From NCBI GenBank assembly GCA_944349515.1, contig CALVNE010000004.1, forward strand, positions 2,166-66,165: a DNA stretch of 64,000 nt, given 5' to 3'. A model generated the notes under the pieces. It did not search any database and was not told the origin of the DNA. It saw nothing but the letters and a program-made list of their open reading frames with translations. The position numbers and the translations under genes are program-made. Shown piece by piece: positions 11,517 through 34,168 of the stretch; the stretch's first letter is position 1; every line of letters begins with the position of its first letter. This DNA is from an uncultured Clostridia bacterium. Lineage in GTDB: Bacteria; Bacillota; Clostridia; Christensenellales; UBA1242.

Positions 11517-11761
11517 TTTCGCACTGTTTTAAGATGTAAGCAAAATCTTACAAAAATTTAAAAATCAAAATAGGCGCGCTTTAATGGTTTTGTGTAAAAG
11601 CAAAAAAATATTTAATTTGCGTCTATCTTAAAGAGAAAACTTGCTGGCGCTTGGCAAGTTTTTTATGTTTAAAAAATTTTAAATAAATATTTGATTTTAC
11701 CTTAAAATAAGTTGATTTTTTGAAAGTAACTATGGTATCATAAACTAGGTGGAGGTCAAAA

Positions 11762-11992
11762 ATGATAATAGAAAAAGTTAAAGAGTTGCTTGCAGAACAA
11801 CTTGGAATTGACGCCGGCACTATCGCTGACGAAGCCAATATTTTGGAGGATCTTGGGGCTGACTCGCTGGATATCATTGAAATGTTGATGACGCTTGAAG
11901 ACGAGTACGGCATAACAATCCCAGACGACAAAATCAATCAAGTTAAAACTGTTAAGCAAGTTGCAGAACTCATTGAAGAGTGCAAAAAGTAG
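11762..11992 (+). CDS. acpP: acyl carrier protein
   Basis: 76 aa. Has the phosphopantetheine-attachment motif LGADSLDIIEM. SD is GGAGG. Confidence 0.9.
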   Translation: MIIEKVKELLAEQLGIDAGTIADEANILEDLGADSLDIIEMLMTLEDEYGITIPDDKINQVKTVKQVAELIEECKK

Positions 11993-12051
11993 ACAAGTTT
12001 TATCATATTTCGACAAATTCTCTCATATTTTTTATATGGGAGGATTTTTTT

Positions 12052-12309
12052 ATGAAGCCATATATCGAAAGTCGCACGCGAGAACTTGGAGAATATGTCT
12101 ACCAAACTCACGATACCATAAGGGAGAGCGCAAAAAAATTTAACCTCTCTAAAAGCACCGTGCATTATGATTTGTCAAATAGATTAAAAAGGGTGGATGC
12201 CGAACTTTATAAGGAGGTCAAAAAAATTTTGGATTTGCACTTTTTGGAGAAGCACATAAGGGGTGGAGAGTCGACTAAATTGAAATATCAAAATGGCAAA
12301 AATAAATAA
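12052..12309 (+). CDS. spoIIID: stage III sporulation protein D (mother-cell transcription factor)
   Basis: ATG at 12052 preceded by GGGAGGA. MKPYIESRTRELGEYV...SKSTVHYDL...IRGGESTKLKYQ closely parallels B. subtilis SpoIIID. The track's upstream extension from 11980 is rejected. Confidence 0.85.
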   Translation: MKPYIESRTRELGEYVYQTHDTIRESAKKFNLSKSTVHYDLSNRLKRVDAELYKEVKKILDLHFLEKHIRGGESTKLKYQNGKNK

Positions 12310-12690
12310 AAATTTTTCTCTCTAAAAACACCTTGAAATAATAAATAATTATTTCTCTAAAATGTGTCTTGTAAAAGTAAAAAAGAAAAATCAAAAAATA
12401 TTAAAAAAATAGCAAAAAAATCAATTTTTTTTTGAAAAAAATGCTATTTTTTTATTATTTTTTGATTTTTTTATATTTTTTAAATAAAAATTAGCCGTTT
12501 TTTATTTTAAATAAATTTAGCAATAATTAAACTTTGTGGACTATTTTTTTAATATTTTACTTTGCTTTTATATAAAAAATCTTAAAATAAAATTATTCTT
12601 AAAATTTTAAATTATTTTTTAGACAAATTTGTTTTAATATTTTCCAAAATAAAATGTTTAAAAATATTCGATAAAATTTATCAAATTATT

Positions 12691-12718
12691 TTGATTTGCG
12701 CCTTAAATGATATATAAT
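12691..12718 (+). promoter_or_regulatory. candidate sigma-A promoter of the giant gene
   Basis: TTGATT at 12691-12696, 16-nt spacer, TATAAT at 12713-12718, about 70 nt upstream of the ATG. The background is very AT-rich, so a chance match is possible. Confidence 0.35.
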
Positions 12719-12788
12719 ATATTATATATTTAAGCCTACTTGTTTAAATATTTATTTGCTTTATGCAAATATTATCTAAGGAGGAGTC

Positions 12789-12857
12789 ATGAAAAAAATT
12801 GCACCCATAATGCTTTGCGTGTTTATGATGTTTGGTGGAATTGTGCTATCCGCTTGT
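12789..12857 (+). other. lipoprotein signal peptide of the giant protein (cleavage before Cys23)
   Basis: MKKIAPIMLCVFMMFGGIVLSAC has a basic n-region, a hydrophobic core and an L-S-A-C lipobox. The Cys codon TGT is at 12855-12857. Confidence 0.75.
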
Positions 12858-21800: not shown

Positions 21801-24800
21801 GCGAACTATTACGACGAGTATAAAACGGTGACAAACAATAACTACAACCCAAACAGCACCCTTGTAGGCGAAAGTTTGAAAAAAATCGTTGAGGCGGGCG
21901 GGTCGCTTTCCAGCGCCGTTTCCAATCTCTCATATGCTGGCGGACTTGCGGGCTACGTCGACATCTATGAAGATATCGACGAAGAAAATGTCACCTTCAG
22001 CGGTTCGGTGGACTACTCCACCTATGACCTTTTGACGATAAGAATTTCTAACTCCATTAACATCTACGGCGAGGTTGCCGGCGGGCTTGTGGGATATTTA
22101 AGTGGAACAACAACTGCCTACGATATGGGGCTAGAGTTAAATGCCGACATGGCGCTTTCCACACCGTCATACATCACGGCTAAAAACCTCTATGCGGGCG
22201 GAATTGTTGGCGAAAGTTATGGCGGACTATTTGCTTGCTACGCTGAGTACACAAGAGAACTTCAAGACACAATTGAAGAGAGTATGTACCGTTATTATAA
22301 CTCCTCAGCGAATGTCGAACGCGGACAAATGAGCATTTTCTCTTTCACGGAGTCGGAAACCGGCGTGGGCATTACGAGCAGATATAACGACCCATACTTT
22401 GTTGGCGGACTTGTCGGCTATGCGGGCGGTGGCTTTATCTCAACATCATACAATAGGTTGAACGTCGTTTCCAATACTTCTCATAAACGAGATTATCAAG
22501 CATATTTCGGCGGACTTGTCGGCTGTGTGGATAGTGATGACTATTTCTCCTCCCAAATTCTTAACACAAGAGGGCAAGTTTCTTACTCGCTCAATGAAAC
22601 CTATTTCAGCGGAGTGCTAAACTCCACCACCGCCGCTTCCATGGGTGGTGCTGTTGGGTTAATCACAAGCGATAGCATTGTGGAAATGCGAAGGGTGAAC
22701 TCCATTCCTTACTATGATTCTAACTCTGATAGGTCAAAAATTTTCGGTCTTATTGGCGGATTTGAAACGAATGTGAACACCGACGGCGGACTGAGTTTGA
22801 CAAGACCTTCTCACCTTTACCTTATGGATAACGCCAATGGCTACTACGACATTATAACCAACACAAGGCTCAGCGGTAACACCTACGAAACCACCACAAC
22901 AAGCATAGCAGTATCCGCAGAGTACCTTGCGCAAAACGATGTGTTGGAAAATGACGCGACGCGCTATAACTACATTTTCAGCTATCGCGACTCGCTTATC
23001 GAAACCTTTAACCCAGATATTTCCGACGCTGCAACAGACATAGATAGCGCTCAAATTATGCAAGTGGAGTGGATAAGAAACCTCTCCACCATGGAATCGG
23101 CATACACAAGAATGAATCAATATTTCCTAAGGAACGATTGGGAGCCTGACTATTGGCAACACGAGGTTGGCACTCTTTATCCGCGTATTGTTTTAACCCC
23201 AAGAACTAACACCGTCTACCTCGACGCCTATGAGGAAAGCATCAGAGAAGTTTTGGATATCATAAACGAAAACTCCTCTTACACCGTGATTGTGCGCGGG
23301 CTTATCGACCCAGAAAATCCAAGTTTGGGCTACACCGATGTCGACCTTAGACCATATCTCGACGCTAGCACCACGGCGCGTAACTTCTCTGGCAGATTTG
23401 TGTCTTATGAAGAGTATATGAACTCCAACACCGAAGGGCTTGTCACTGCGGGGAAAGAAGTATTTGACGGACCATATATCATCGGTGGCACTGCCGGCGA
23501 AAATGTGGGCATTATCCTTGACCAGCCTATCTTTGAAACGGTGGATTATGGCTTTGAGATGGGCAACCTTAACATCTATTACACCAACAGTGGCAACGTT
23601 TCCACAACTTCCTATACCTCGCTTTTGGTGGCAAGAACGGCAACTAACGGATATTTCCATGAACTAGATATCCACCTCAACAACCCTCTCACCTTGCAAG
23701 CGGATTCCTACGGCATGGCGGGACTTTTAACTGCCGAGTCTATCTCCACCGATTTTGTGGATATAAACATCATCTTTAGAAGAGCGAATTTAAACGATAA
23801 TTCTGTCGATTTGACATTTATCGATTCTGACGCCGAAAGGCTAAACGGCGGAAGTCAGTATTTCGGCATTTTGTCGGGCAGAATGCTTCAAAATTCGGTG
23901 TATAAGGCGATGACCATTTCGAACATCAACTTTGCTGTGGAGCAAAAGCGAACGTCGAGCCAGCAGTCGGGCGGAGGCACAGCCACACAAAATTCTAACA
24001 TCAATTTCAATTTTGTTAAACAAACAGATAACAGTTACGATTTGTATTTTGGTCTATTGTCTGGCGACAGCAGTGTGGAAGCGGGCAGTAATCCTTCGCG
24101 GTTTAGAATGACCTCGCTTAATAGGTATCAAGGAAATAACTATAATATCAACATAACTTTCACCAAAAACGACTCTTTATCCGGCGACCAAAATATCAAT
24201 AACGCCTACATAGGTTCCTACTTTGGAAGGGCTAATTTCGGCTATATTGAAGGTGTGTTGGGCGATGATAATTATCCACTAAACAACATAACCATATCTC
24301 AGAATCTTCCGGTTACCACTGAATATATAGGGCTTGGTTTCGGCAGATTGGTGGGTAATGGCAGTATGAATATCACAAAAGATAGCGATGCAGTTGTCAA
24401 CTTTGTTGCTAAAGGTAGTGTGGTGCAAGAGGGCACGGTGGAAACCGCTTACATCGGCGGGCTTATCGGTCAGGCTGAGATGAATTTAAGTATCGACAGC
24501 AACATTGAAACCGGCTTGTCACTTGCTGGCGCGGAAAATATCACTTCCTCTGCAAACATCGGCTCCATTATCGGCGTACTAAATGGCACCTTCTCGGCTA
24601 AGTCGTTTAGCACGGAAAACTCATTAACTGTGAACACTTTGGGCGGCGTAGATATCAATTACGGGCTTATTGGTGTTTTAAGTGGCAGAGCAAGCGTGGA
24701 AATGGGCGTAGACACTGACGCCGACGCTATGCTTTCGCGTGATGATATCACCATTTTGAACACCACTGGCAATGTCAACATCGGCGGTGTGGTTGGTAAG

Positions 24801-27800
24801 GTGGAAAGCACAAACAGTGAAAACGCTGTTACCATTTCAAATTATCTTAATTTAAGCACCTATACCATTGAAAACTGCGCAAATGCGACGGTGGGTGGTA
24901 TTGTCGGCGACGCCAGCACGGCAAGTTTCACTATCACTTCCTCCGGCTTTGGTGGAAAGGTATTACTGAGTAGTGTAAATAACAATCAAGACTTTGCTGT
25001 TGGTGGAATTATCGGCAGGGCGCAACAGTCAACCTCGCCAAGCACTTTAAGCAATATCTATTCCTTCGGCGATGTGTTTGTAAGTTACGCTAATAATGAC
25101 AATAGATTAAACACCTATTACTTTGGTGGCGCTGTTGGCTTCTATGAGGTGCAAGAGGGCTCAAATGTCAATTTGACCATTCGAAATTCCTATTCCTTGA
25201 TGTCATCGTTCAACGATAGGGTGACAAACGCCATCGCAAATTACGCCGTTAATGCCTTTGTTGGCTACGGCGCAGATTCGGTTACTTACAGCGGAAATTA
25301 CTATGCTTCCGGTGTCACCTTCGCCCTTCAAACGCAAAGCGGAAATAATGACACCTACTTCATCGCTCACAACGCAAGCGCACCAACTTATTATGGTTAC
25401 ACACTCAGTAACAACGAGGTGCAAGCGTCTAACACAAACATTGTTGCAAACATAAGAAATGGCATTTCTAATATTGTTGGTGGCACTAACGCACTGGACG
25501 ATATTAAAAAACTCAATCCAACCCTTCTTGAAGTGGGCGGAAATGGGGCGTTTACAGGGGTATTTGACAATAGCACAGCGCGCGATATAAATTGGTTCTA
25601 TGTTGGCAGTTCCTTGGGCGACAGCGATAACTATATCACTGCAAGAATAGCAACTTTGAATAATGCGGTCATCGTTGGAAACGGGCAAACTATCAACTTC
25701 CGCTCAAGCGAGGACGCCACCGAGGTTGGCGAAGAGGCGACGTCAGATTACGGCTTTATTGGCGAGATGTCAACACTGGGCAATTCTTTCTCGGCGGTGA
25801 CAAACTTAGTTGTTAATAACACTGTAAGCGTTGTTTCAAACAGCGGTATTGCTGTTGGCGGTATTGTTGGACACATGGGCGCTTCCAATGGAGGCACGTC
25901 CATTCTCTACGCTGTGGGCGTGAGTGGCGAGATAATCGTCGGCGGAACGGGCAACATCTACGTTGGAGGACTTGTTGGTAATATGCAAGGCGAAGGCATG
26001 ATAAACAACGCATACTTCGACGGCGATATCTATTATTCGGCAGGCGCTAACGGCACTGCAACTGGAATAGCATATAGCCAAAGTCACTTAGAAATTTTAA
26101 ACACATTCTCGGCTGGCTCAATTCAAACTCTGTCGAGTCTAGGATATGTAAGTTTGTTTAACGACTCTTCTGCATCCACTGTAACACGCATATTTGACTC
26201 CTACACAATCATGCAACACTTTGGGAACACCGACTATGACGCTGGAATTTATGAAGGCAATTTAGGCACATTCGTTGGCACGCAATCAAATTGCTTATCC
26301 GACTCCTCGGGTGTTTCGTACGCGACGCGCTCGGTTGGCTACGGCGGAGCAACTTACAGTAAAAATTCGCTTGTTGTCAGCGAGGACGACGCGGGAACAG
26401 CAAACAATAACAACGGCTATGTTGAGGTTGAAAATGGCACGCGCGATGTTTGGTTCTATTCGCCATACAAAAACTACGGCTACGGCACCACCGGCTTTGG
26501 ATTCCTTAGAAATGTCACCATTGCAACGCGCGAAAGTGTGCAGACTGGCGATTCCGAAACGGTCAACTATGAGTACACAAAGTATGCGATAAGTGATATT
26601 GCTAATATTGAAACAACCACCACCGACTTCTTCTATCCAATTCTAAACAGCGCACAATTTAATGCAATGATTACCTTGTCAGGAGCGGCGGATGTTGCCG
26701 AAAAGGATAGACAATATATGCTCCGTTACGATATCACGGCAAATTTAGATAGAGGCAGTAACTTCTCTAACCCTAGCGCGCCTTTCACTTTGGACGGCAG
26801 AAATAACACGCTAACGCTAAATTCCTCTTCTTCAAATATGAATGTCGCACTTTTCAATGTTATTTATGGCAATCTTGAAAACCTAAACTTTAAAGATGTA
26901 AAGGTTGAAAGCACAGACTCAAGTCTCAATTTAGAAAATGGCATGAGCGTTTATGGCACGCTGGCAAATGCCTCCTATAACGCGCGCATTGTGAATGTGA
27001 CCATGCAAGGAACACTGGCGGTTACCGATACTTATAAAATTGTTGGTGGCGTCATCGGCGTGGCTGTAAACTCTGAGATAAGAGCGGTGGAAAGTGTTGT
27101 CGACTTCGCACTAAATGCGGACAGTAGTAACAGCATTGTTGGCGGTGTTGTTGGCTATGCTATCGAAAATGGCGACGCACGAGAGGATATTGCAGTTGGC
27201 ATCTTCTATTCGTCAAATGCTGGGAATATCAGTATAGATGACCCTTATGCACGAAATGTTGGTGAAAATGAAAGTAGCACGGAGGAAGGCGGACAAGATT
27301 TAGTCTTTATAACCGCAAGTTTGAACGGCGATGCATTAACCCTTTCTTCAAAAGGTACTATAAGCGCGCACACAAGCAATGTGGGCAATGGCGGAACAAG
27401 TGATATGCAATTAGATTCCAACCTTTCCAGCATAATTGGCGGAATTGCCGGTGTCAGCGAGGTGAATATCGACCACTCATACAACTCGGCAACTCTTATA
27501 AATGGATACAGACAATTTACAAGTGAGGAACAACATAAAATCGGAGCAGTTTCCGCGGGCGGAATTGCGGGATACTCCACGGCGGATATCTCCAACTCTT
27601 TCAACGCTGGCTATGTTGTTGCGGGAAATATGTATAACTACTACGAAACGGTTGAAAGCGCAAACGTGGAAAGAAAATATGGCTACGTGGCACTTGCGGG
27701 CGGAATTGCAGGCTACACCACAGGTTCGATAGGCGCGAACGGCACAAGTTACAACGACGGCAAAGTGCAATCGGTGAGTTATTTTGATTCCAAAGTGCCG

Positions 27801-30800
27801 GCGGGAAATGACGGCTCAGAATACCAAATTGAACTTTCCAGCGTTACATGGGAAATGAACAACACGGGTTGGGACGGAACCGTGGATGGCACGGGTAAAA
27901 CTATCAACGAAACACTAAACGATTTGGAAGATTATATCAATAATGCTCTTTACCCGGGACAGGGTGATGCATATGACGGAAGTATGTATAATAGAAAAGA
28001 CACTTCCATTTCACTTACCTTCAACTTTAAGATAAAAATGAACACCATAAACACAGCAAGGCTGACGCATGCTTATGCACTCGGCTATCAAGGCGCAGAG
28101 AGCGAAATGAACGGTGCGAATGGTCAGTATGCCGAAATTGTCAATGACGGCTGTATTGGTCTTATAGAAAAAGACGTATCGTTCAACGAAACCATTCAAC
28201 GCTACGGCGGAGTGACACTTTCCTATCCATATATCTATGACTGGGTGGAATTTGCCGAAGTTGACGAAAATTTCGTGGCAAGTTATAGCCAAGAAGGAAA
28301 CGGCGAATCCTCTTCGGAAAGCATGAACATGATAAGCGCTTACGATTCCTACGGCTTCCCAAGCAGACTCAATGTTTATTATAAGTATTCGTTTGATATG
28401 AATGTTCTTAGCGCAAACCGATCAAGGAATTATCATAGTTTATGGCGTTTGGCTGGCTCATTAAATGCGCCGACGAATAGATATAAGTTCACTGTTACTG
28501 ACAAACCTTACGACAAAACTCACACCGTTTCTGCGGAAGGAGAAGTTATAAGCCTTGATTTATCCGTTCAAAATGCGCAAGGGGTATTGCCGGGCGGTGA
28601 AACTGAACACTACTTCTCAATGCCGTTCTATCAAGGTAGTGGCGCAACCGGTTATGACGGCAGTTCCTATGAAGAATATATGTATCGCCTAAACAACACT
28701 TTGAGTTTGTATAATAACTACACAACAGCCAGCATGGGCACGGACATCTCGCAAGACTTAGAAAGGTTGTACGGCGAGATTAAAACATATGTTTCAAACA
28801 ACACGCCGGAAAAGAAATTTAATATACGTGGCAACACTTTCAGCATGGTATATAGTGGTGACCAACTCTCTGCTTACACCAAAGGCGTTTCCTTCACGGG
28901 GCAGATAGAGATAGGCAACGCGCCAACTCTATCGCGCGACGGTGAGGAACTTTCTAGCACAAGCGCGGGAATTAGAGTGAAAGATATGACCTTTGACATC
29001 TATAACGGCGCTACGCAAGTTGCTTTAAGTCCACTAAGTTACACGGCATATATCAGCGAAAACACAATTTACTACACTGTTTACTACGATAAAGACGCGT
29101 TGTCGGAAAATTTTGGCGGTGAAGACCTTGATTTAAGCGGTTTGAGTATAGACGCGGGCTACACACTTGAATACACCTTCCGCGACAGCCTCACGCTGAC
29201 AAAGAACAATGTCATTCAAGACGAGGAAATTGTCATCTTCAAAATTATGGACGAAGATACTCTTACCGCGATAAGTTTTGAGGAGTATTTCGCCGAACTA
29301 GACAGCATTCAAACCAGCGAACTGCCTGTGGAATTTGAGGGAATTGATGACGAAGTTATTGCACCGCTTTTAGGTGATGACGGAAATTATCGCATAACTT
29401 ATGGCAACTTGCCTAATTCAACTGGCGAAAAAGAGGCGTATTTCAGTTTCAACTCCGTGGCAGATGCTGATGCCTTTGTTGGTGCGCTTGATGAAAGCGG
29501 AACGGTGAATATGTACTTCTATTATCAAACTTATGGCTCTGGCGAGTATGAGGACGAAAATATCGTCACTCATGTTGGCGCTCTTAGCGACATTTCGCAA
29601 GACTATATATTTGGCATAGGCGAATTTGGTGATGCCGGAACAGTGTTAACTAACACTGCGGGCGTTTCGCTTGATGAAACGGCGGGTTCGTCGATTATGA
29701 GGTTGATGTTCCCTAACAATTCCGACCTTGGTGCGATTAAAGTGGAATTTGAGAATGGCAATATCTACTTCTATCCTCAGACCTCTGACGAAGATAAATT
29801 CAGTTACTATATCGACACCTACGGCACTGGGATTGAGGTCAGCGCTGTATCAAATGGCACCAACTTCTATATCAACCTAGATTTTAGCATGGAGACCAAC
29901 AGCGGGCTATATTCCGCATGGCAGAGTATGCTATCAAGCGCCACAGTTTCCACAGCAGAAGCGGTTACGGACAATAACACAGTGACAGTGCCAAACAGGA
30001 TAAGTCAAACATTGAATGGTGTCAACGTCACCTATATTTTGGACCGCTCTAATACAACCGATTTCACCTACCAAGATGTTGGAAACAGCGTGGAAGTTAC
30101 AAGAACGGGCTCTCAAGCCGTATTCACGGCAAACTATAACTACGCGGGGGCCTCTGTTGGCGGGGTTGGTAATGTGCAGTTTGTAACAATTAGTGACAAC
30201 CTCTACTATGTCAACAGCGACTACGTCCTTCGCGTTGGTGAGAACGGGCAAGTGTCTGGCATTCGAGATAATAAGGGCGCAACTTACGAGTTTACAAGCG
30301 GCAACACCGACACTGTGTATGGCTTACTCACCGCTGGCACTTCTTACACGCTGACCACAATTGAATATAGCAATGCAACGCTAAACATCTATCGTCATGC
30401 TGGCGGTGAGATTAGGGTTTATGAGTTTAGCGGCTCAGCGTACATTGTTGACGGCGCAGATAGGTACGTTTATGTTAATGACACTTTAACAAGCGTAACA
30501 GCAATAGATGAGGACTACTTCTTTGTGGCAAACAATGGCGCGCTTAGAAACTTCACTTTAACCGACATTGTTCTAAGCGACGACGATTATTACCTTGTTT
30601 ACAGCGGTGGGCTTTTCGTTGGTAATTTTGGCGCGTACTCATATGATCCAAACAGCAACACGGCAACTTACGGTGGTGCAAATGTTGAATCCATGATTTA
30701 CCGACTTAACCTGTCAGATTTAACTGGCACCTTTGATATCACAACAGAAACCGGCAACGAAACAGCAAATTATTCGGGCGGATATAACGGCTGGTTTGAA

Positions 30801-33197
30801 AGCGATTACGAGTTCTACTTTGTGGCAACAAGTGTGGTGGACACATCATATGACGCCTCAGACCTCTTCCGCACACAAGTTATCACTTTCGACGAAAGTG
30901 GACTTCAAGTGTTGATTGACGATAATGCTTACAACTCTTTACAAATCAAACAGTATAACCGCACGCTCTCTGACCCTGAGAGGTTGCAACTATTCCACGG
31001 CACAACCGAAATTGACTACGACCCTTCCGGTGACGCCGTGTGGGATACTTCAAATTCTAGTTCGTTGTTCGCCTTCGATTCCTTCTTCATTGCCTCCCTT
31101 AGCGACGAGTTAACCGACGGCGTTAGCAGTGTGGCTTTTGGAGCGCACACCGGCGAGGTGGTGTTCAAAGCGGACGTTACAAGCGAAAATAGTCACACCT
31201 TAACTTTAAGCGAAGAAGAGGCGACAGAGAAAGAAAACGAAATTTTAAGATTCACAAATGCACACAATATCATCTTAGGCGACAATGTTTACTATGAGGG
31301 CAACATGATTTTGAATGGCACACAACTCTACGGCAACAGTTATGTTATCAACGTCTTTGGCAATATGAACGCGTGGAAAAATATGATTGAAGTCAACGCA
31401 ACGGCAGACAGTCAAGGACTTATCACAGACACTTCCTTTGCCTTTGCGGTGGACTTGACAAGTTACGCTTATCGTGGCGAAGGGGTGACCGAGGATAACG
31501 ATCATTACGACAGCGCACTTATCTATGTTGGCGCAGAAAATAATGGCGGAATGCTTAGTAACATTAAATTATACGGGTCACTTAGAAATGTAAGTTCCGA
31601 CACCACCGACGAGTTTGGCAACGTTGATTGGAGGACCAGAAATGCTGATGGGCGGGCTTACATAGATTCTTCATATACAGAAGCGGAAGTGTTATTAAGA
31701 AAAATTTCCCTTCTTTCGTCAAATCTAACTGAAGATAGTTCTAATCTTCAAAATATCACATCAGCAATGACCATTCAAGGCAAAAGCGCAAAGGCGAATG
31801 ACCGTATTGTTGCCAGAATGACGGTATCTTCTGGTGATGATTTTGGATATAACCAATACAACGTTAAAGACGGCGCGAACGTCAATGTTGTTTTAAGCGT
31901 CGGCGAACAGGTCAGCGCAAACAAAACCTATGTTGTGCTGGGCGACGGTGCCAATGGCGCCAATGGCGCAGAGGGTAGCTCTACGGGTGCCAATGGTGGT
32001 AACGGCGGTAAGGCAGGTATTGTTGATAGCACGGGGAAAGATGACAAAACTAACGAAGAAAATGGCGCAACAGTATTTTATGGCATCGACGGCTTGGGTG
32101 GTAACGGAGGAAACGGTGCGGACGGCAAAAATGCTTCCTACTATTATGTAAACATCATTATACCACGAATAGATGCTAGCACAGGTGGCGGAGGCGGTGG
32201 CGCCTACGGACTTGACGGCAATGTTTACAAGCTGACGAACGCAGACGGCACATATACTTTAACTTATAATGGCACAATTGAAACGACGGTGTTATCTAAT
32301 AGGCGTCAAGCAAGAGATTCAAAAAATATCGACGGCACTCAAATATCCGCACTTGCCGGCAACGGCGGAACAGGTGGACTTGGACTTATCTATATCGGCG
32401 GTGTTAGTGATGATAATGTTTATGACGCCTTCAATAGAGATCGAGGGTCCTTAGGTCCGACTTATCCAAACGAATACGCAACCTCATGGTATATCACCGC
32501 TGCCGGCGGTGGCGCTGCGGGAAGAAGAGATAACTATCAAGGTGCTGGCGGAAGGCGTCATGTTGGTGAAACCGGCGAAAGTGGAATGGCTGGGTATGAG
32601 ATTGGAACTAAAGGCAGTAGTAGTTTTGAACGTGGCAGTTTTACTCATGGTGAAGTAAATGAATATTCATATATATACACAAGTCAAGCAAAATCAAGTT
32701 ATTATTTTGCAAACCATCATGGAGATTATCCAAATGAATTCTTATTTGGAAATCTGCAATATATTCCTGCCTTCTCACATTGGTACATTACTCCTGCATC
32801 ATATGGGCATGATAATGTGAATATCATAGTAAGACCTCCTGATGGTTATAATGATGATAGATATGGAGGGGTCTTGCTTGGGCGTGAAAATTCAACATAT
32901 GATGATGTTTCCACACTTACTGGATACTTTAACTACTTCCTAGCCGACAAAACTAGTATTTGGAAAGATATCTATTATGGTGGTGCCGGAGGATACTTTA
33001 CGACAAGTATTAATCCGAATGGTGTTTATCCGGAAATGTATGGTGGGACTCCATATACCAAAGAAATTTTGGGATATGTATTGTTTGAAGACGAAATTGC
33101 AAGTTATTCCGGTTACGGACAGTACTTCTTCACTAGAAATGATATGGTGACAAGTGGTGGCTCGTTCGGTATGGCGCAAGGGGTGTATATCAAATAG
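12789..33197 (+). CDS. giant (6,802 aa) surface lipoprotein with Ig-like repeats, five GLUG-type beta-helix blocks and a glycine-rich C-terminal region
   Basis: Single uninterrupted ORF of 20,409 nt. SD AAGGAGG at 12778-12784. Lipobox LSAC. 22 G-G-[LIVA]-[AVI]-G pentapeptides are readable in the translation. No LPXTG, HEXXH or C-terminal TM. Confidence 0.9.
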   Translation: MKKIAPIMLCVFMMFGGIVLSACSGSNISLSLSTNYVEIYTNDADRENYQSANIEVSLNGSNDGIDVQVESGDDVVTIASRENSSSSTTITLNAIKSGDARVKVYSRENNAVYDYLNIKVYTLPTATNIIDQNDDNNRTSMFVVKDGEGVSLEVDKYISFEPADVNVKDISWSFNSQNEEISTVYEQDMGDGTTETYAEIVNNTLKVYDACNEQTITVYAIVETDRSLSKPLVFEVIESSSINYYEIGGHEIDDADGEVEFDLVRNNSNTDASSGVGVSSISGEVCLTTFDENMTLTPKAYLKNSGVEVEAREYFKFTYNSVYDDVRGRLTFYFTIDALYDDYTMEKRFGELYFDLVFEYSEYVYSISAREELVGEPVLNLSFVPESIVLRDQSGNDIGGNPIDLYSQYYGSQGYLVTGYVYPDDVPLSDDTYRIQIDLSEYIGLADSDSEGFVDRFLQVSDRTGRKIELEQVGNSQTYLSTSIANGTSVYLRSGDLGGNPSINGFPISFLASVNSHVATESLTANLYYITTGTTMTVAEVIYDEDGNESFVDDYTAVKYLSSARNSAGVASTKEYFFRISGISSAEGLSLDRAENQNFTITMDEYARSADDEEQFVIVRVTVTPNGTNFRDRTTFRFYHKSGLTSDTVTLETFVPLAIASVQDNNQASNNIFGETTEEQNYLLVDGEIVAEGASSTTLSSILASAGSNVSILLNYQSATLNTVANTAGYQFFFLNYELLDMEEDEFKSLNVADILNYNNAFTSDGITDYFTYNNGVLSLNDSEFVVFVKVEFYGYDSNHNDVTLVRFFKLESFYPVTILRSNVSDVNLLSHQSLAEGDEELSQVDVTLTLRSDSKVTTYASEDEHLSYFKIILGAETSYVVNNDNLANGTLEDENNSFENMLSLYDISYIYNDYLYLTNFRLVGGNTFRFNIRAESTNFQNHVNDVVMIEYSYGSVTYRESINVNITQVNRVEEVSWLNANADSSIYLNLATNDTLEQNFTIITSVGPSDAYNTSLSHVYQPMDNNGDILQITTSEVGQTFTLSINSATRGGWGYLYLLPADMIKAQGGTRRALVYRQDDLGNMVSEFLALDDIHSWYDAVINGEEGYLNYFLNNDDERIYYRDIIVQIRITVADGTSEETAIRIYEEADFVQEIQENPSLFYRIMNDLTLEDYKENFNFSGMIFGDNENVSINLNGISLIGELSGVVKDLTIYGSSTNGAFVASKIGESVTNNNVISAGYRLPTVENVIIDVRYDDESNRYEPSALSGSRSESGTTYAGAIASVNGGIILDSYVYGVTLNTTGVDYVGGLAGWSYGEISGSGVEFYQFAGDDNNYTNTFAGGTIGGLVGHLGSQDFTSSVTNSYVYAFNLNAGVGASGISSYTSNILGAQWFGGLAGSSEGTVNIDTSFAFMGEYANLIGNLGTGTNITNAYITYYSISNGLYYPNFTYYNGNGVLNTVSYSQMNTMPWTGLDSAIWEYENISSEYNFGYPYFKEVKQTMSASVEQTVQFVSGKSLPVDGGENGILFNYSVRENVTGDIANGELEAYNTISLKELFGVTEAESRSLLLSVDNPLYAHFSNSSITTLMTTDNYAGRVVGVTLTSRTDFSNSKKFNIMIIDAIPEFVVTANDVVLRDEQILSVQTGARNAQSVSVIVDDTIYLNGESYTLILDDYDYFNEFDETNQYEGVENYYFTHETLGNAIEYQANNASESNVNANIYLGLTSLGANYESYSEAIKINNTRNLLLYAYDGANSLSVSADLLSFKPLGTTSFTATINSDRVDEKLFIEVGYDDGNDEEIYDVIYSDDMNGTVKINDNLEIYFSMTEEKNGNNIFVNTLIGVSQDYRHRVDKDYNLTLYIRPDSKRTSDDLLSTISLTVLKQSIEDFNVTNYSLLSKQLRNSRWYYVRSENITTTIAPGTETILMVDVNPNYAHMSNFTVTYTLSNPSAGTVSLSRLMYNNSYGYYVDSTTTEALNAYNSTLRGLNVTPTDDDLRNGVYYFRLYISSSFTANSLINLTFTFYDGEEVLKSETVPYTIDYIQEAVVLVNGETSIMLARGDSASVSVEVNIDQTLDSIYLSGHGAYITMTNITETIYPTYKLYTASINTSVLSTLASGEETGSFTVEASVVSYINGRPSYKYSYATISLVDFVVNTSETSLSTSGSTSIYGGVEYDTFNSYMNASNELSFNYSVSPSSYTYNTVEEEIAVNELLQKQRSFQSTGYYADAENGYYINYETNPISGAIEKVSLKERLYYANSDGTYTAVYNSQQNRFLENSTFDFVGGDEGNSITIRGKQSGSVLLRLETIIMVGNNIQRFNYDFVVRITIWTDEEVPIPIYTAEEFLRYLNGNPDSEGNTDSGDYILMNDIILDSYVPQSTQYFDSLDGNGYTIYLNSFTFDNASTTLNLALFSEVTSNSTIKNVRVNLYNAGQITVNIQQYDYINIAGFTLLNNGIIYNCDVVSFYDVNNSSYRVGGNNGIVVSFVRGNGGQAVDLTSGDIRPENINIAGFALDNNSIITNSRVGGETYKCIREEFDERYYDEMSLSLFTIQGQGYVSGFVGENSGTISASFASNMAISNSMQTTLSETAGFVLENLGTINTSYVRGQYSTADDDEYYYDGSTISTTGNVGGFSYYNNGTIKNSYVNFAIEIEQSRSYMSAGFVYRNGSEGIVTLCYAQVKMSSSSINDMSFSGVTEGGVSLNENDDGISYCYYFSDERDIDIQGEYEGIGAYAISTVDDESVYYRFSFASEQNAVDGIWTMLGEGRGITLASADHIAFSNRYIVYDEENEEEYALFYSTLRDYTTRLQVDLSYGSLNNPIIIRSAEDFARATGRATSEEISSYQNYYNDYEVFGNYRFVNDIDFSTIDQNLDDNKAVRLTTTTKEFSGIIDGNGFTISNIVLESSGTLENYGLFASINNGTIMNLGLEVASVHNGTASIVGTLAGTAIDSRLIGLSLSLAGSRDDEDALVAISIHGNNIVGGVVGAVFGNSKLSDILIEDIDVAANYYDEYKTVTNNNYNPNSTLVGESLKKIVEAGGSLSSAVSNLSYAGGLAGYVDIYEDIDEENVTFSGSVDYSTYDLLTIRISNSINIYGEVAGGLVGYLSGTTTAYDMGLELNADMALSTPSYITAKNLYAGGIVGESYGGLFACYAEYTRELQDTIEESMYRYYNSSANVERGQMSIFSFTESETGVGITSRYNDPYFVGGLVGYAGGGFISTSYNRLNVVSNTSHKRDYQAYFGGLVGCVDSDDYFSSQILNTRGQVSYSLNETYFSGVLNSTTAASMGGAVGLITSDSIVEMRRVNSIPYYDSNSDRSKIFGLIGGFETNVNTDGGLSLTRPSHLYLMDNANGYYDIITNTRLSGNTYETTTTSIAVSAEYLAQNDVLENDATRYNYIFSYRDSLIETFNPDISDAATDIDSAQIMQVEWIRNLSTMESAYTRMNQYFLRNDWEPDYWQHEVGTLYPRIVLTPRTNTVYLDAYEESIREVLDIINENSSYTVIVRGLIDPENPSLGYTDVDLRPYLDASTTARNFSGRFVSYEEYMNSNTEGLVTAGKEVFDGPYIIGGTAGENVGIILDQPIFETVDYGFEMGNLNIYYTNSGNVSTTSYTSLLVARTATNGYFHELDIHLNNPLTLQADSYGMAGLLTAESISTDFVDINIIFRRANLNDNSVDLTFIDSDAERLNGGSQYFGILSGRMLQNSVYKAMTISNINFAVEQKRTSSQQSGGGTATQNSNINFNFVKQTDNSYDLYFGLLSGDSSVEAGSNPSRFRMTSLNRYQGNNYNINITFTKNDSLSGDQNINNAYIGSYFGRANFGYIEGVLGDDNYPLNNITISQNLPVTTEYIGLGFGRLVGNGSMNITKDSDAVVNFVAKGSVVQEGTVETAYIGGLIGQAEMNLSIDSNIETGLSLAGAENITSSANIGSIIGVLNGTFSAKSFSTENSLTVNTLGGVDINYGLIGVLSGRASVEMGVDTDADAMLSRDDITILNTTGNVNIGGVVGKVESTNSENAVTISNYLNLSTYTIENCANATVGGIVGDASTASFTITSSGFGGKVLLSSVNNNQDFAVGGIIGRAQQSTSPSTLSNIYSFGDVFVSYANNDNRLNTYYFGGAVGFYEVQEGSNVNLTIRNSYSLMSSFNDRVTNAIANYAVNAFVGYGADSVTYSGNYYASGVTFALQTQSGNNDTYFIAHNASAPTYYGYTLSNNEVQASNTNIVANIRNGISNIVGGTNALDDIKKLNPTLLEVGGNGAFTGVFDNSTARDINWFYVGSSLGDSDNYITARIATLNNAVIVGNGQTINFRSSEDATEVGEEATSDYGFIGEMSTLGNSFSAVTNLVVNNTVSVVSNSGIAVGGIVGHMGASNGGTSILYAVGVSGEIIVGGTGNIYVGGLVGNMQGEGMINNAYFDGDIYYSAGANGTATGIAYSQSHLEILNTFSAGSIQTLSSLGYVSLFNDSSASTVTRIFDSYTIMQHFGNTDYDAGIYEGNLGTFVGTQSNCLSDSSGVSYATRSVGYGGATYSKNSLVVSEDDAGTANNNNGYVEVENGTRDVWFYSPYKNYGYGTTGFGFLRNVTIATRESVQTGDSETVNYEYTKYAISDIANIETTTTDFFYPILNSAQFNAMITLSGAADVAEKDRQYMLRYDITANLDRGSNFSNPSAPFTLDGRNNTLTLNSSSSNMNVALFNVIYGNLENLNFKDVKVESTDSSLNLENGMSVYGTLANASYNARIVNVTMQGTLAVTDTYKIVGGVIGVAVNSEIRAVESVVDFALNADSSNSIVGGVVGYAIENGDAREDIAVGIFYSSNAGNISIDDPYARNVGENESSTEEGGQDLVFITASLNGDALTLSSKGTISAHTSNVGNGGTSDMQLDSNLSSIIGGIAGVSEVNIDHSYNSATLINGYRQFTSEEQHKIGAVSAGGIAGYSTADISNSFNAGYVVAGNMYNYYETVESANVERKYGYVALAGGIAGYTTGSIGANGTSYNDGKVQSVSYFDSKVPAGNDGSEYQIELSSVTWEMNNTGWDGTVDGTGKTINETLNDLEDYINNALYPGQGDAYDGSMYNRKDTSISLTFNFKIKMNTINTARLTHAYALGYQGAESEMNGANGQYAEIVNDGCIGLIEKDVSFNETIQRYGGVTLSYPYIYDWVEFAEVDENFVASYSQEGNGESSSESMNMISAYDSYGFPSRLNVYYKYSFDMNVLSANRSRNYHSLWRLAGSLNAPTNRYKFTVTDKPYDKTHTVSAEGEVISLDLSVQNAQGVLPGGETEHYFSMPFYQGSGATGYDGSSYEEYMYRLNNTLSLYNNYTTASMGTDISQDLERLYGEIKTYVSNNTPEKKFNIRGNTFSMVYSGDQLSAYTKGVSFTGQIEIGNAPTLSRDGEELSSTSAGIRVKDMTFDIYNGATQVALSPLSYTAYISENTIYYTVYYDKDALSENFGGEDLDLSGLSIDAGYTLEYTFRDSLTLTKNNVIQDEEIVIFKIMDEDTLTAISFEEYFAELDSIQTSELPVEFEGIDDEVIAPLLGDDGNYRITYGNLPNSTGEKEAYFSFNSVADADAFVGALDESGTVNMYFYYQTYGSGEYEDENIVTHVGALSDISQDYIFGIGEFGDAGTVLTNTAGVSLDETAGSSIMRLMFPNNSDLGAIKVEFENGNIYFYPQTSDEDKFSYYIDTYGTGIEVSAVSNGTNFYINLDFSMETNSGLYSAWQSMLSSATVSTAEAVTDNNTVTVPNRISQTLNGVNVTYILDRSNTTDFTYQDVGNSVEVTRTGSQAVFTANYNYAGASVGGVGNVQFVTISDNLYYVNSDYVLRVGENGQVSGIRDNKGATYEFTSGNTDTVYGLLTAGTSYTLTTIEYSNATLNIYRHAGGEIRVYEFSGSAYIVDGADRYVYVNDTLTSVTAIDEDYFFVANNGALRNFTLTDIVLSDDDYYLVYSGGLFVGNFGAYSYDPNSNTATYGGANVESMIYRLNLSDLTGTFDITTETGNETANYSGGYNGWFESDYEFYFVATSVVDTSYDASDLFRTQVITFDESGLQVLIDDNAYNSLQIKQYNRTLSDPERLQLFHGTTEIDYDPSGDAVWDTSNSSSLFAFDSFFIASLSDELTDGVSSVAFGAHTGEVVFKADVTSENSHTLTLSEEEATEKENEILRFTNAHNIILGDNVYYEGNMILNGTQLYGNSYVINVFGNMNAWKNMIEVNATADSQGLITDTSFAFAVDLTSYAYRGEGVTEDNDHYDSALIYVGAENNGGMLSNIKLYGSLRNVSSDTTDEFGNVDWRTRNADGRAYIDSSYTEAEVLLRKISLLSSNLTEDSSNLQNITSAMTIQGKSAKANDRIVARMTVSSGDDFGYNQYNVKDGANVNVVLSVGEQVSANKTYVVLGDGANGANGAEGSSTGANGGNGGKAGIVDSTGKDDKTNEENGATVFYGIDGLGGNGGNGADGKNASYYYVNIIIPRIDASTGGGGGGAYGLDGNVYKLTNADGTYTLTYNGTIETTVLSNRRQARDSKNIDGTQISALAGNGGTGGLGLIYIGGVSDDNVYDAFNRDRGSLGPTYPNEYATSWYITAAGGGAAGRRDNYQGAGGRRHVGETGESGMAGYEIGTKGSSSFERGSFTHGEVNEYSYIYTSQAKSSYYFANHHGDYPNEFLFGNLQYIPAFSHWYITPASYGHDNVNIIVRPPDGYNDDRYGGVLLGRENSTYDDVSTLTGYFNYFLADKTSIWKDIYYGGAGGYFTTSINPNGVYPEMYGGTPYTKEILGYVLFEDEIASYSGYGQYFFTRNDMVTSGGSFGMAQGVYIK
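16200..17110 (+). other. GLUG-type beta-helix block 1 of the giant protein (approximate bounds)
   Basis: Starter IRIYEEADFVQEIQENPSLFYRIMNDLTLE, then VGGLAGW, IGGLVGH and FGGLAGS motifs with NSYVY/TSFAF-type rungs. Confidence 0.6.
19780..20890 (+). other. beta-helix block 2 (AGF-variant motifs; approximate bounds)
   Basis: Starter IPIYTAEEFLRYLNG...GDYILMNDIILD...LDGNGYTI, then IAGFTLLNNGIIYNC, IAGFALDNNSIITNS, VSGFVGENSGTIS, TAGFVLENLGTIN, VGGFSYYNNGTIKNS and SAGFVYRNGSEG. Confidence 0.55.
21240..22780 (+). other. GLUG-type beta-helix block 3 (approximate bounds)
   Basis: Starter IIIRSAEDFARATG...GNYRFVNDIDFS...IDGNGFTISN, then GGVVGA, GGLAGY, GGLVGY (twice), GGIVGE, GGLVGC and GGAVGL. Confidence 0.6.
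23200..26130 (+). other. GLUG-type beta-helix block 4 (approximate bounds)
   Basis: Contains GGLIGQ, GGVVGK, GGIVGD, GGIIGR, GGAVGF, GGIVGH and GGLVGN, spaced by NSY/SFG-type rungs. Confidence 0.5.
26627..27775 (+). other. GLUG-type beta-helix block 5 (approximate bounds)
   Basis: Starter YPILNSAQFNAMITLSG...RQYMLRYDITANLD...LDGRNNTLTLN, then GGVIGV, GGVVGY, GGIAGV and GGIAGY (twice). Confidence 0.55.
31929..32600 (+). other. glycine-rich tract of the giant protein
   Basis: Contains GDGANGANGAEGSSTGANGGNGGKAG, GLGGNGGNGADG, STGGGGGGAYGLDG, AGNGGTGGLG, AAGGGAAG and GAGGRRHVGETGESGMAG. Confidence 0.7.
32580..33197 (+). other. aromatic-rich C-terminal module with different base/codon composition
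   Basis: About 205 residues rich in Tyr/Phe/His/Trp/Gly (YYFANHHGDYPNEFLFGNLQYIPAFSHWYITPASYGH...). Visibly more AT-rich. I count only 3 GGC among roughly 27 Gly codons here, whereas GGC dominates upstream. Confidence 0.5.
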
Positions 33198-33415: not shown

Positions 33416-34168
33416 ATGAAAAACGACGATATTTCGCATGACGGGCATAGGGCGCGCCTCTTGGACCTTGCGTGCAATGCCGGGCTTGACAGCATGAGCG
33501 ACGTTCAAGTTGTGGAATTTCTTTTGACCTACATCTTTCCACGTGGCGATGTCAACCCGCTGGCGCACCGACTACTTGACACCTATGGCGACATAACTCA
33601 CATAATCAACGCGAATGTTGCTGAACTTATGACGGTGAAGGGCTTAAACGAACGCTCGGCGAAGAAACTTTCTAAGTTTGGCGATTTGTTCTTCGCCTAC
33701 ATCACCGCGCGCATGAATAAAAAATTCCACGCCGCTTGCGAAGGAGAAATTATCGACGCCGTGGAAGATTTATTGCGATTCCGTAACGACGAATTTATGC
33801 TACTGCTTGGCTTTTCGCCCAAAAATTACCTCTGCGGTAAGAAAATGGTGACCCGCAATTCCAAAAACGAGGTGGGCATGAATGTTATGGAATTGACCGC
33901 CTTTCTTTCCTCCGTTAAACCGCACGCGCTGGCAGTTGCCCATTGCCACCCCTATGGGATAAGCGACCCAAGCAAAGACGATGTGCAAACGCTGGCAAAA
34001 GTCAAAAAAATTTGTTACGATTGTGGCGTTCGACTGATTGATTCCTACATCGTCGGCGAGGACGGCGTGTTTAGCCAAACAAGAGGTTTTAAGGTGAGAA
34101 AATACACCGACGTAGACGACCTTAGAAAAGCCTTTGAAACTTTAAGCGAAAACAAAGACGAAGAATAA
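33416..34168 (+). CDS. radC: RadC-like JAB/MPN-domain protein
   Basis: 250 aa. SD is AGGAGG. HhH-like segment (VKGLNERSAKKL) and the JAMM-type motif HCHPYGISDPSKDD. Confidence 0.8.
   Translation: MKNDDISHDGHRARLLDLACNAGLDSMSDVQVVEFLLTYIFPRGDVNPLAHRLLDTYGDITHIINANVAELMTVKGLNERSAKKLSKFGDLFFAYITARMNKKFHAACEGEIIDAVEDLLRFRNDEFMLLLGFSPKNYLCGKKMVTRNSKNEVGMNVMELTAFLSSVKPHALAVAHCHPYGISDPSKDDVQTLAKVKKICYDCGVRLIDSYIVGEDGVFSQTRGFKVRKYTDVDDLRKAFETLSENKDEE

Follow-up and report, generated by a model that had tools for sequence, protein, structure and literature searches.

A hypervariable glycine-block module at the C-terminus of a giant lipoprotein from uncultured Clostridia

Does the glycine-rich end of the giant lipoprotein encoded in the 64,000-nucleotide window analyzed here form a polyglycine-II (PGII) ligand-binding tip of the phage gp38 type? 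The stretch in question (31929-32600) corresponds to residues 6381-6604 of a single open reading frame (ORF), and the finding is confined to the last 6% of that ORF (Table 1). In-frame translation of 31929-33197 recovered all the motifs quoted in the earlier note (GANGANGAEGSSTGANGGNGGKAG, GLGGNGGNGADG, GGGGGGAYG, GNGGTGGLG, AAGGGAAG, GAGGRR, YYGGAGGYF, and TSGGSFG). Glycine accounts for 53 of the 224 residues (23.7%, versus 9.5% protein-wide); three of the protein's four most glycine-rich 100-aa segments, the top two among them, overlap the stretch, and the fourth begins at residue 6526, overlapping its end. Measured against 5,000 composition-preserving shuffles, glycines recur at i/i+3 in 28 pairs versus 12.2 ± 2.7 (z = 5.8; 0/5000), and spacings of 1, 2, 4, and 5 match expectation. 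The clustering is not caused by composition, and the observation of glycine clusters is confirmed as real.

Table 1. Positions of the lipoprotein, its terminal blocks and the flanking gene (C1-C4 residues in module numbering).
Feature	Position	Strand	Remarks
Giant lipoprotein ORF	12789..33197	+	6,802 aa; coordinates include stop codon
Lipoprotein signal peptide	12789..12857	+	lipobox L-S-A-C (Cys23), read directly off the sequence
C-terminal module	31851..33194	+	448 aa, residues 6355-6802; glycine-block half, then aromatic-rich end half
B1, YVVLGDGANGANGAEG	31929..31976	+	beta-strand-like YVVL, then (G-small-N/D) triplets
B2, GANGGNGGKAG	31986..32018	+	10-11/11 identical, all pairs
B3, GIDGLGGNGGNGADGKNA	32082..32135	+	15-18/18 identical, all pairs
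B4, GGGGGGAYGLD	32184..32216	+	all-Gly run; 10-11/11 identical
B5, LSNRR	32292..32306	+	conserved polar motif; 5/5 identical, all subfamily (a) pairs
B6, SALAGNGGTGGLGLIY	32346..32393	+	Gly triplets, then beta-strand-like LGLIY; 12-16/16 identical
B7, WYITAAGGGAAGRR	32487..32528	+	strand, Gly run, basic cap in succession
B8, GETGESG	32565..32585	+	G-x-x triplets; less conserved than other blocks
C1, SSYYFANHHGDYPNEFLFGNLQYIPAFSHW	32694..32783	+	first conserved block of end half; Y284, E296, G300, L302, Q303, S309 nearly invariant (20 sequences)
C2, WKDIYYGGAGG	32961..32993	+	W371, G377, G380 invariant
C3, GGTPYTKEILGY	33042..33077	+	G398, G399, T400, I406, G408 invariant
C4, YFFTRNDMVTSGGSFGMAQG	33123..33182	+	family's most conserved block; R429, D431, V433, T434, S435, G437, G440 invariant
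radC-like gene	33416..34168	+	directly downstream of the ORF; conserved right flank of the cassette in all relatives

The ORF opens with the lipoprotein signal MKKIAPIMLCVFMMFGGIVLSAC|SG, and the N-terminal lipobox proposed earlier is correct. The signal is shared by P0028 and by P0005, a full-length orthologue of 6,758 aa whose identity falls from 55-80% in the first two thirds to 37-50% in the final 1,800 aa. The glycine blocks belong to a module (~450 aa) seen only at the ends of orthologous giant lipoproteins from uncultured Clostridia, always terminal, as its claimed extreme C-terminal position had it. Only 16 clusters of relatives were found among 1.84 billion representatives, and every relative keeps the glycine blocks.

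The inter-glycine segments proved hypervariable, as had been proposed: family-wide identity is ~85% within the blocks (seven to nine) versus ~25% between them, where indels abound, and strain variants diverge chiefly in the module. Ten strain variants from a single sister species show 96-99.7% identity across their first ~6,200 residues but just 51% between allele types in the module, the single hypervariable part of a ~6,750-aa protein. Mosaic module alleles occur, with crossovers falling within glycine blocks: B3 is a recombination junction between L002 and P0005, and B6 holds the crossover of the mosaic allele P0021 and the one between L004 and L007. In DNA, the variable unit is a bounded cassette of ~1.9 kb; the radC-like gene is 92-99% identical between strains carrying different module alleles.

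A PGII fold is a candidate, supported indirectly at the sequence level by the three-residue periodicity, by the GG[N/D/K] pattern, and by B1-B2, which match the PGII segments of the Obg fold in an order-specific way. B1, kept in all full-length members, aligns with Obg residues ~8-20, and B2 with Obg GGPDGGDGGDGGDV. Two AlphaFold2 runs gave no confident model (pLDDT 27 and 32). In gp38, fully surrounded PPII helices are all-glycine (bioRxiv 10.1101/2023.11.25.568672), and the all-glycine run of B4 is a candidate buried central helix.

The gp38-type reading survives in the layout of conserved and variable parts and fails in homology. As in gp38, conserved glycine motifs scaffold variable loops and recombination occurs inside the motifs; however, hhalign against S16 gp38 gave a probability of 0.15%, with a score equal to that of shuffles, and no match was found by tblastn in 50,697 phage records or among the 2.9 million viral contigs scanned. 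Homology to ALK was rejected. The likeness to PE_PGRS did not hold, the module having neither a PE domain nor long tandem GGAGGX arrays. Pfam, NCBIfam, PDB, and IMG/VR likewise returned no match. The module is a new family, unrelated to gp38, ALK, and PE_PGRS, which in our judgment would nevertheless work like gp38.

The earlier interpretation is, as a whole, partly supported. The module may be a distal ligand-binding tip, a reading somewhat weakened because the module of a sister subfamily contains a hydrophobic hairpin between C1 and C2. Its glycine blocks and exchanged loops resemble the tips with which certain phage tail fibres bind their receptors, and to which the family is unrelated. 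Most likely, it is an exposed recognition module that varies between strains.

The glycine-rich stretch lies close to the C-terminus of a giant open reading frame whose product has a classical lipoprotein signal at its N-terminus (MKKIAPIMLCVFMMFGGIVLSAC|SG; Cys23 is the lipobox residue), and in-frame translation of 31929-33197 recovered all of the motifs quoted in the earlier note. With 53 Gly among its 224 residues, the stretch reaches a Gly content of 23.7%, against 9.5% for the whole protein. Among the four most Gly-rich 100-residue windows of the protein, three, including the top two, overlap the stretch, and the fourth, which starts at residue 6526, overlaps its end. The Gly residues are also regularly spaced: 28 Gly-Gly pairs were counted at spacing 3, against 12.2±2.7 expected from 5,000 composition-preserving shuffles (z=5.8; 0/5,000), and in the same shuffle test spacing 6 was enriched too, while spacings 1, 2, 4 and 5 were at expectation. 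This periodicity is far beyond chance. The blocks can be written as the triplets (G-A-N)(G-A-N)(G-A-E)G, (G-A-N)(G-G-N)(G-G-K), (G-G-N)(G-G-N)(G-A-D)(G-K-N) and (G-G-T)(G-G-L), in which Gly occupies the first position, a small residue the second, and Asn, Asp, Lys or Thr the third. Upstream of the giant gene's ribosome-binding site lies an extremely AT-rich, homopolymer-laden non-coding segment, which could be a large regulatory or phase-variable region.

Features of the window and of the giant protein, with positions where assigned and the window sequence of each conserved block
Feature	Window position	Strand	Size or residues	Sequence or remark
ORF amid upstream housekeeping genes	5763-7775		670 aa	no Pfam match
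ORF amid upstream housekeeping genes	9339-9872		177 aa	no Pfam match
SpoIIQ-like gene and next two ORFs	10920-12310
ACP-like ORF	11763-11993		77 aa
SpoIIID-like regulator	12053-12310
AT-rich non-coding region	12310-12770		~450 bp
Ribosome-binding site of giant gene	~12779			AAGGAGG
Giant ORF	12789-33197	+	6,802 aa	lipoprotein
N-terminal segment	12789-13133		residues 1-115	weak family matches
GLUG-like segment of the body	16371-16931			tblastn match to module
Second variable spot	~27.8-28.1 kb		P0005 residues 5001-5100
C-terminal module	31851-33194		residues 6355-6802 (448 aa)	B1-B8 and C1-C4
Glycine-rich stretch	31929-32600		residues 6381-6604	spans B1-B8
B1				YVVLGDGANGANGAEG
B2				GANGGNGGKAG
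B3				GIDGLGGNGGNGADGKNA
B4				GGGGGGAYGLD
B5				LSNRR
B6				SALAGNGGTGGLGLIY
B7				WYITAAGGGAAGRR
B8				GETGESG
Conserved RG				between B8 and C1
C1				SSYYFANHHGDYPNEFLFGNLQYIPAFSHW
C2				WKDIYYGGAGG
C3				GGTPYTKEILGY
C4	33123-33182			YFFTRNDMVTSGGSFGMAQG

Alignments of up to 20 sequences were used to define the conserved blocks of the C-terminal module, in which the Gly-block half and the C1-C4 half (the aromatic-rich end module of the earlier note) always co-occur. The module comprises 7-9 short Gly-rich blocks, invariant at the protein level, together with four conserved aromatic/polar blocks and at least eight intervening segments that are hypervariable in both sequence and length. Across eight non-redundant members of the window protein's subfamily, pairwise identity is 83-85% in the blocks versus 24-25% between them, and the inter-block segments vary between homologues from 3-13 residues up to 36-54. 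These values, with which the strain panel described below agrees, answer the question, raised in the earlier note, whether the inter-glycine segments are hypervariable among relatives: they are, and their strict conservation, the opposite outcome considered at the time, was clearly not found. Between lineages, identical Gly-block residues use the same codon in only 44% of cases, which indicates that block invariance is maintained by selection on the protein and not by recent copying. Basic residues come after B2, B3 and B7, hydrophobic beta-strand-like runs (YVVL, TVFY, LGLIY, WYIT) flank the blocks, and variable segments occur on both sides of almost every block. The most conserved block, C4 (FFTRNDMVTSGGSFGMAQG), repeatedly gave a PDB-profile match to the TALE-like BurrH repeat unit (FSRADIVKIAGNGGGAQAL), which we judged to be a chance resemblance (E=0.007 summed over 9 weak repeats; FFtRnDmVTSaG versus FSRADIVKIAG).

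The family is undescribed, being without a counterpart in Pfam, NCBIfam or the PDB. Nothing in the last 565 residues matched Pfam or NCBIfam with E<=10 as the limit, scans of 20 family members singly against both collections at E<=10 returned nothing relevant, and PDB sequence and profile searches with the module yielded no significant match. Scans of the whole protein and of the module returned only a sub-threshold GLUG motif in the body and a sub-threshold JUQZ_fam_ocin hit at the N-terminus, so that, GLUG aside, the rest of the giant protein is an orphan too. The N-terminal hit, to NCBIfam NF053514 'BLB8/JUQZ-1 family protein' (E=1.7e-4; 21.8 bits versus a cutoff of 40), is accompanied in the same segment by a weak Ig-like Pfam match (NUP210 Ig 15). 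The family is also small: a word-indexed search of 5.8 billion proteins returned four relatives, and only 16 proteins turned up when 1.84 billion cluster representatives were searched exhaustively with an HMMER profile. Among 185,579 species genomes seven loci were found, every one of them in a MAG named 'uncultured Clostridia bacterium', and a metagenome scan yielded three more. Scanning 2.9 million viral contigs revealed no relative, and tblastn of 50,697 phage records gave no match at E<=1. A separate protein, P0017 (291 aa, from a 953-bp JGI metagenome contig), matched the Gly blocks of the module profile at E=4e-5; it is Cys-rich and unrelated-looking, carries GGSGGRGGNGGDGKD and GGKGGNGGNGGNGGKAGLLTILG motifs, has no Pfam match and could belong to a further GGN-triplet family not yet described.

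Wherever the available sequence is long enough, a very large ORF ends in the module and radC comes next. Two relatives, P0005 (6,758 aa) and P0028 (7,336 aa), are full-length and share the lipoprotein signal; compared end to end with the window protein, P0005 is 55-80% identical over the first two thirds and 37-50% over the last 1,800 residues. The possibility that the module is a separate gene in the loci L001 and L002, with a short call in L003, was rejected, as the breaks coincide with N runs at scaffold gaps. In these three loci (ENA 'ONAT22-1 ... scaffold') the N runs stand just 5' of the module and gene callers gave separate proteins of 510-593 aa (P0001-P0003), an annotation artefact by which databases present the module as if it stood alone. 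On gap-free MAG contigs the giant ORF is continuous. In L004 (P0004), where the module also looked like a separate gene, the frame break coincides with no N run, but the ORF of its close relative L007 is continuous.

The neighbourhood is that of an ordinary spore-former chromosome with housekeeping genes. Upstream lie pth, mfd, a gene for an LPG-synthase-like membrane protein, a SpoIIQ-like gene with a degenerate M23 domain, an ACP-like ORF and spoIIID, with two further ORFs without Pfam matches among the upstream housekeeping genes; downstream lie radC, a PHP-domain gene, whiA, dnaE and pfkA. The SpoIIQ-like and SpoIIID-like genes indicate that the host is probably an endospore former. A literature search on sample and run accessions returned nothing about its habitat. 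The M23 peptidase was also considered as a Gly-Gly processing enzyme and rejected, given its degenerate HxH motif, its N-terminal transmembrane segment, its SpoIIQ-like character and its position beside spoIIID. The radC gene starts 44-220 bp downstream of the giant gene. No immunity-like ORF was found between the giant gene's stop codon and radC, nor were silent module cassettes, orphan C-terminal domains or immunity cassettes found elsewhere in the window.

Strain-level variation was analyzed in ten variants of 6,475-6,762 aa from the P0005 cluster, which represents a sister species and not the species of the window. The shortest, P0024 (6,475 aa), was left out of the comparison as a truncated chimera: its module is lost after B2 and runs into S1/PNPase-like sequence (…GRVVRIMDFGAFVEF…), and it is probably a chimeric assembly. 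Per 100 residues, the mean pairwise difference is mostly below 5% (range 0-16%) across residues 1-6200 and rises to 28-45% at residues 6301-6758, which is exactly the module. A second, smaller variable spot within the body reaches a mean pairwise difference of 0.156, the other bins before residue 6200 being mostly below 0.07 and at most 0.08. Pairwise identity in this cluster is 96-99.7% in the body and 51% between allele types in the module. P0005, P0018 and P0019 carry a type A module and P0020, P0023, P0025 and P0026 a type B module. The remaining two are mosaics: P0021 is type A up to B6 and type B thereafter, with the crossover within SALAGSGGTGGLGLIYY, and P0022 carries a third type at B1-B3, another loop set at B3-B6 and type A after it, so that the junctions of the two proteins fall in B3 and B6.

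The same pattern recurs between loci. L002 is identical to P0005 save for three B3-B6 loops (3/14, 4/25 and 4/16 residues identical), which match P0006 or L005 instead, and L004 and L007 do not differ as far as B6, past which their identity is about 20%. At the DNA level, L002 and L017 are mostly 87-100% identical over 5.7 kb of gene body, with two of about forty 150-nt bins lower (79% and 43%), and fall to 35-85%, mostly 35-76%, across a stretch of ~1.9 kb that begins ~170 codons 5' of B1 and extends through the intergenic spacer. Beyond it, radC is 92-99% identical at the DNA level between strains with different module alleles. The module is a bounded allelic cassette swapped by homologous recombination, and loop sets are reshuffled between strains by crossovers that fall within the invariant Gly blocks or in the flanking conserved sequence. 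In the window's own species, comparison with the single close relative, L003 (97% module identity), revealed 14 amino-acid and 9 synonymous changes over residues 6251-6750, a ratio above that of most of the gene but based on small counts.

As to the fold, AlphaFold2 returned a mean pLDDT for the module of 27 with 5 sequences and 32 with 17 aligned sequences, so that neither model is usable, and our reading draws on the sequence pattern. A PPII helix has three residues per turn, whereas the beta period is 2 and the alpha period 3.6; the spacing-3 Gly therefore fits PPII and neither of the others. In support of this notion, GGX/GXX triplets are the sequence signature of Gly-rich PPII bundles (PMC13243192), a rule that the module triplets (G-small-N/D/K) fit. 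In such bundles a fully surrounded helix is all-Gly and basic residues sit at helix C-caps (bioRxiv 10.1101/2023.11.25.568672), and the all-Gly block B4 could be a fully surrounded helix. We give an even to slightly better chance to an arrangement in which the Gly blocks form PPII helices packed in a bundle.

A beta-solenoid appears unlikely to us. In this reading the GLUG-like body would continue as a right-handed beta-helix, with the Gly blocks as its tight turns or short strands, loops protruding from it and the function unchanged. Such a fold is suggested by the sequence directly 5' of the module, which resembles beta-helix repeats (NIILGDNVYYEGNMILNG...) and is conserved in all subfamilies, by a 24%-identity match (E=6e-4) between the module and a GLUG-like segment in an uncorrected tblastn against the window, and by the hydrophobic beta-strand-like runs beside each block, where the low-confidence AlphaFold2 models also put strands. 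However, Gly is enriched at spacings 3 and 6 only, in contrast to the 2-residue beta period, the distance from block to block ranges among homologues from 3 to 54 residues, which regular coils would not show, and Pfam GLUG does not match the module. When the module profile was compared with all 300-residue windows of the protein's own GLUG-like body, the maximum hhalign score was 19.8, within shuffle noise, which speaks against a simple continuation of the beta-helix into the module and lends no support to the module's derivation from that body.

The explanation we prefer, with about even confidence, is that the glycine-rich stretch is the Gly-block half of a C-terminal module that forms the exposed recognition or antigenic end of a lipid-anchored surface protein. 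The module lies at the chain end opposite the lipid anchor, no other part of the protein diversifies strongly, and the module has no linked co-varying gene; its position farthest in sequence from the anchor and its singular diversification make an exposed recognition or antigenic end the most likely role. In the mechanism that we propose, the Gly blocks would form short left-handed polyglycine-II helices, hydrogen-bonded into a bundle against the flanking beta-strands and the conserved aromatic half, with the all-Gly B4 in the bundle interior. The bundle would serve as a rigid platform that displays the variable segments as surface loops, through which the module could recognize a partner that itself varies (a host, a glycan or a ligand on a cell surface) and/or escape a targeting agent such as a phage or an antibody. 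Swapping of loop sets by recombination within the Gly blocks would then change specificity or permit escape.

Alternatively, the C-terminus could be an anchor or assembly domain held at the producer's own membrane or wall, its variability reflecting co-evolution with variable envelope polymers; we regard this as rather improbable. The idea draws on a sister subfamily (P0010, P0014, P0015, P0028, L008:4495-6201 and L010:4462-6222) in which a ~40-residue GxxxG-rich hydrophobic hairpin is inserted between C1 and C2 and would stay in the producer's membrane during Sec export. The insertion, which also brings ~100 extra residues and is missing from the window protein, places the hairpin of P0028 at residues 7068-7103, with a Kyte-Doolittle mean of 2.1 over 7068-7101. 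In that subfamily the module may therefore be membrane-embedded or membrane-inserting, which suggests that a free distal tip is not required. Against an anchoring role in general, no hydrophobic segment follows the signal peptide in the window protein or in its closest relatives, Pfam and NCBIfam detected no SLH, CWB2, LysM, GW or LPXTG element, and such strong allelic diversification is more typical of exposed surfaces.

A conserved giant body followed by an abruptly divergent, recombining C-terminal cassette also recalls the polymorphic toxins, and we accordingly weighed a strain-variable toxic domain delivered by a giant filament on the cell surface (compare CdiA-CT, Rhs-CT and MafB). The abrupt drop in conservation near the C-terminus, beyond a body near-identical between strains, speaks for it, and the glycine-zipper-like hairpin of the sister subfamily could enter membranes. 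Polymorphic toxin alleles, however, typically have unrelated folds, whereas here the same conserved blocks recur in all alleles at ~51% identity, which therefore belong to one fold family. Moreover, Pfam and NCBIfam scans returned no toxin, pre-toxin or PADLOC-type family, and neither a small co-varying immunity ORF nor orphan cassettes accompany the module in the window. Because the alleles share one scaffold, and because radC adjoins the gene without co-variation or an intervening immunity ORF, we consider a toxin very improbable.

A low-complexity or disordered Gly-rich linker, or mere chance composition, would account for the very low AlphaFold2 confidence and for the lack of any family or structure match, but is hardly credible and is in effect refuted by the way conservation is distributed: the blocks stay invariant in lineages that are only ~25% identical between them and whose block codons have drifted, the Gly periodicity is far from random, and disordered linkers are not known to keep residue-exact motifs.

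Equally implausible is the view that the bacterium captured a genuine gp38-type adhesin domain from a phage, or that the module is an ALK-type glycine-rich domain, even though motifs are built alike (GGGAAGR occurs both in this protein and in S16 gp38) and the evolutionary behaviour is the same. With the family profile as query, we ran hhalign against those PPII-bundle families for which verified sequences could be obtained, and the scores equalled those of shuffles both for S16 gp38 (14.2 versus 13.9±2.4; probability 0.15%) and for the human ALK glycine-rich domain, its residues verified on 7MZW (15.7 versus 16.2±2.5). Homology to gp38 thus finds no support in the profile comparison, and the family has no phage or viral-contig relative, no Pfam match in any of 20 members (0/20) and a housekeeping neighbourhood.

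The resemblance to gp38 lies in the working logic. Like the gp38 tip of T2/S16 long tail fibres (PDB 6F45), the module sets hypervariable segments between conserved Gly motifs and terminates a long fibre; in both, recombination within the Gly motifs reshuffles the specificity segments, and both contain an all-Gly run, which in gp38 forms buried helices. On the other hand, gp38 is a separate 250-residue protein docked on gp37, whereas the module is fused to a lipoprotein body of ~6,350 residues and, as a covalent part of this giant protein, lacks the context of a gp37-attachment domain. Its gene is cellular, with pth, mfd, spoIIID, radC, whiA and dnaE nearby and not a phage tail-fibre locus, and it possesses an extra conserved aromatic C-terminal half. 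The variable segments at both block ends further mean that the loops cannot all occupy one end of a bundle, unlike those of gp38. Its origin would be independent of gp38, despite the matching logic. The ALK/LTK glycine-rich domain (PF12810; PDB 7MZW, 7N00, 7NX1), an extracellular ligand-binding domain on PPII helices, likewise has beta-strands that run straight into Gly runs (LIIAAGGGGRAYG versus WYITAAGGGAAGRR in the module), but differs in its longer all-Gly runs and its 14 helices and is not known to be strain-variable; PF12810 gave no Pfam match and no hhalign score above local-composition shuffles.

The sole known PGII-bundle family with above-control similarity to the module is the Obg fold (Obg/CgtA, PDB 1LNZ, PF01018). 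The E. coli ObgE N-domain scored 31.7 in hhalign, against 12.6±2.2 (maximum 20.7) for global shuffles, 13.4±2.6 (maximum 23.0; 0/80) for local 12-residue-block shuffles and 17.1 for the reversed sequence, and B. subtilis Obg (residues 3-123) scored 28.0 against 13.3±2.7 (maximum 22.9; 0/60) for local shuffles. In both species 'KTYVVLGDGANG...GANGGNGGKAGIV' was placed on 'VKVYVKGGDGGNG...GGPAGGDGGKGGDVV', aligning B1-B2 with Obg residues ~4-46, where the Obg fold has its first PPII helices (PDB 1LNZ; bioRxiv 10.1101/2023.11.25.568672). The shared pattern is strand-GDGGNG ... GGPxGGDGGxGGDV-strand in Obg and strand-GDG(A/G)NG ... G(x)NGGNGGKAG-V-strand in the module. The match covers 35-39 (~37) of 450 residues at 36-43% identity, with an hhalign probability of 14-26%, and Obg chains appeared in the PDB profile search at E~1-1.6 only. 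The ~155-residue domain PF01018 gave no match at E<=10 in 20 members. Furthermore, Obg is a cytoplasmic, universally conserved ribosome factor, whereas the module is extracellular and hypervariable, forms the C-terminus of a secreted lipoprotein and is followed by no GTPase domain or motifs. The similarity lends indirect support to PGII helices in the module; it is a lead to homology or to motif convergence and is not proof of either.

Other Gly-rich architectures share less with the module. Snow flea antifreeze proteins are small, the short isoform having 81 residues. These collembolan proteins contain the same GGN, GAD and GGK triplets (PMC13243192), but consist almost wholly of PPII helices with 2-4-residue turns, while the module sets its blocks within a 450-residue domain between long variable segments; no PDB sequence match to them was obtained. 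The likeness to PE_PGRS proteins that had also been noticed held for the GGxGG-type clusters and failed for the rest, as Pfam found no PE domain and long tandem GGAGGX arrays are absent; moreover, those proteins are mycobacterial, from a different phylum, whereas the module blocks are unique, position-specific and non-repetitive. Collagen consists of uninterrupted (G-X-Y)n, typically with 10 or more triplets. A collagen-like triple helix was rejected, the G-x-x runs of the module being of 3-4 triplets, with 4 the longest, and Pfam Collagen giving no match. An RTX beta-roll (PF00353, tandem GGxGxDxUx) was rejected as well, given isolated GGNGAD units only, no enrichment at spacing 9 and no Pfam match. 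The module thus appears to work like gp38, yet its family looks new by sequence comparison, in that the defining features of Obg, ALK, PE_PGRS, collagen and RTX are absent.

Natural Gly-rich PPII bundles recognized so far comprise Collembola antifreeze proteins, Obg, acetophenone/acetone carboxylases, phage gp38 and ALK/LTK (bioRxiv 10.1101/2023.11.25.568672). A bolder reading, which we put forward tentatively, is that the module represents a new cellular family in which a PGII bundle serves as an exchangeable specificity cassette ending a lipid-anchored Clostridia fibre of ~6,800 residues: its first helices may derive from, or have converged on, the Obg fold, its loop sets would be swapped by recombination in the Gly helices, and it would be an independent counterpart of the gp38 tip. 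If true, this would add a further natural family to the handful of Gly-rich PPII bundles collected in that 2024 preprint (10.1101/2023.11.25.568672), and a cellular, extracellular bundle would broaden the fold class and imply that the combination of a Gly scaffold with variable loops arose independently of phages. Since the module is invisible to Pfam, NCBIfam and PDB searches and to AlphaFold2, such domains are probably under-counted. Whatever the fold, the comparative result holds: it singles out the one part of an orphan protein of 6,800 residues that diversifies and recombines, and thereby identifies 450 residues with which to find its ligand or selective agent, be it a phage, an antibody or a host receptor, with a natural allele series and chimeras available for mapping specificity.
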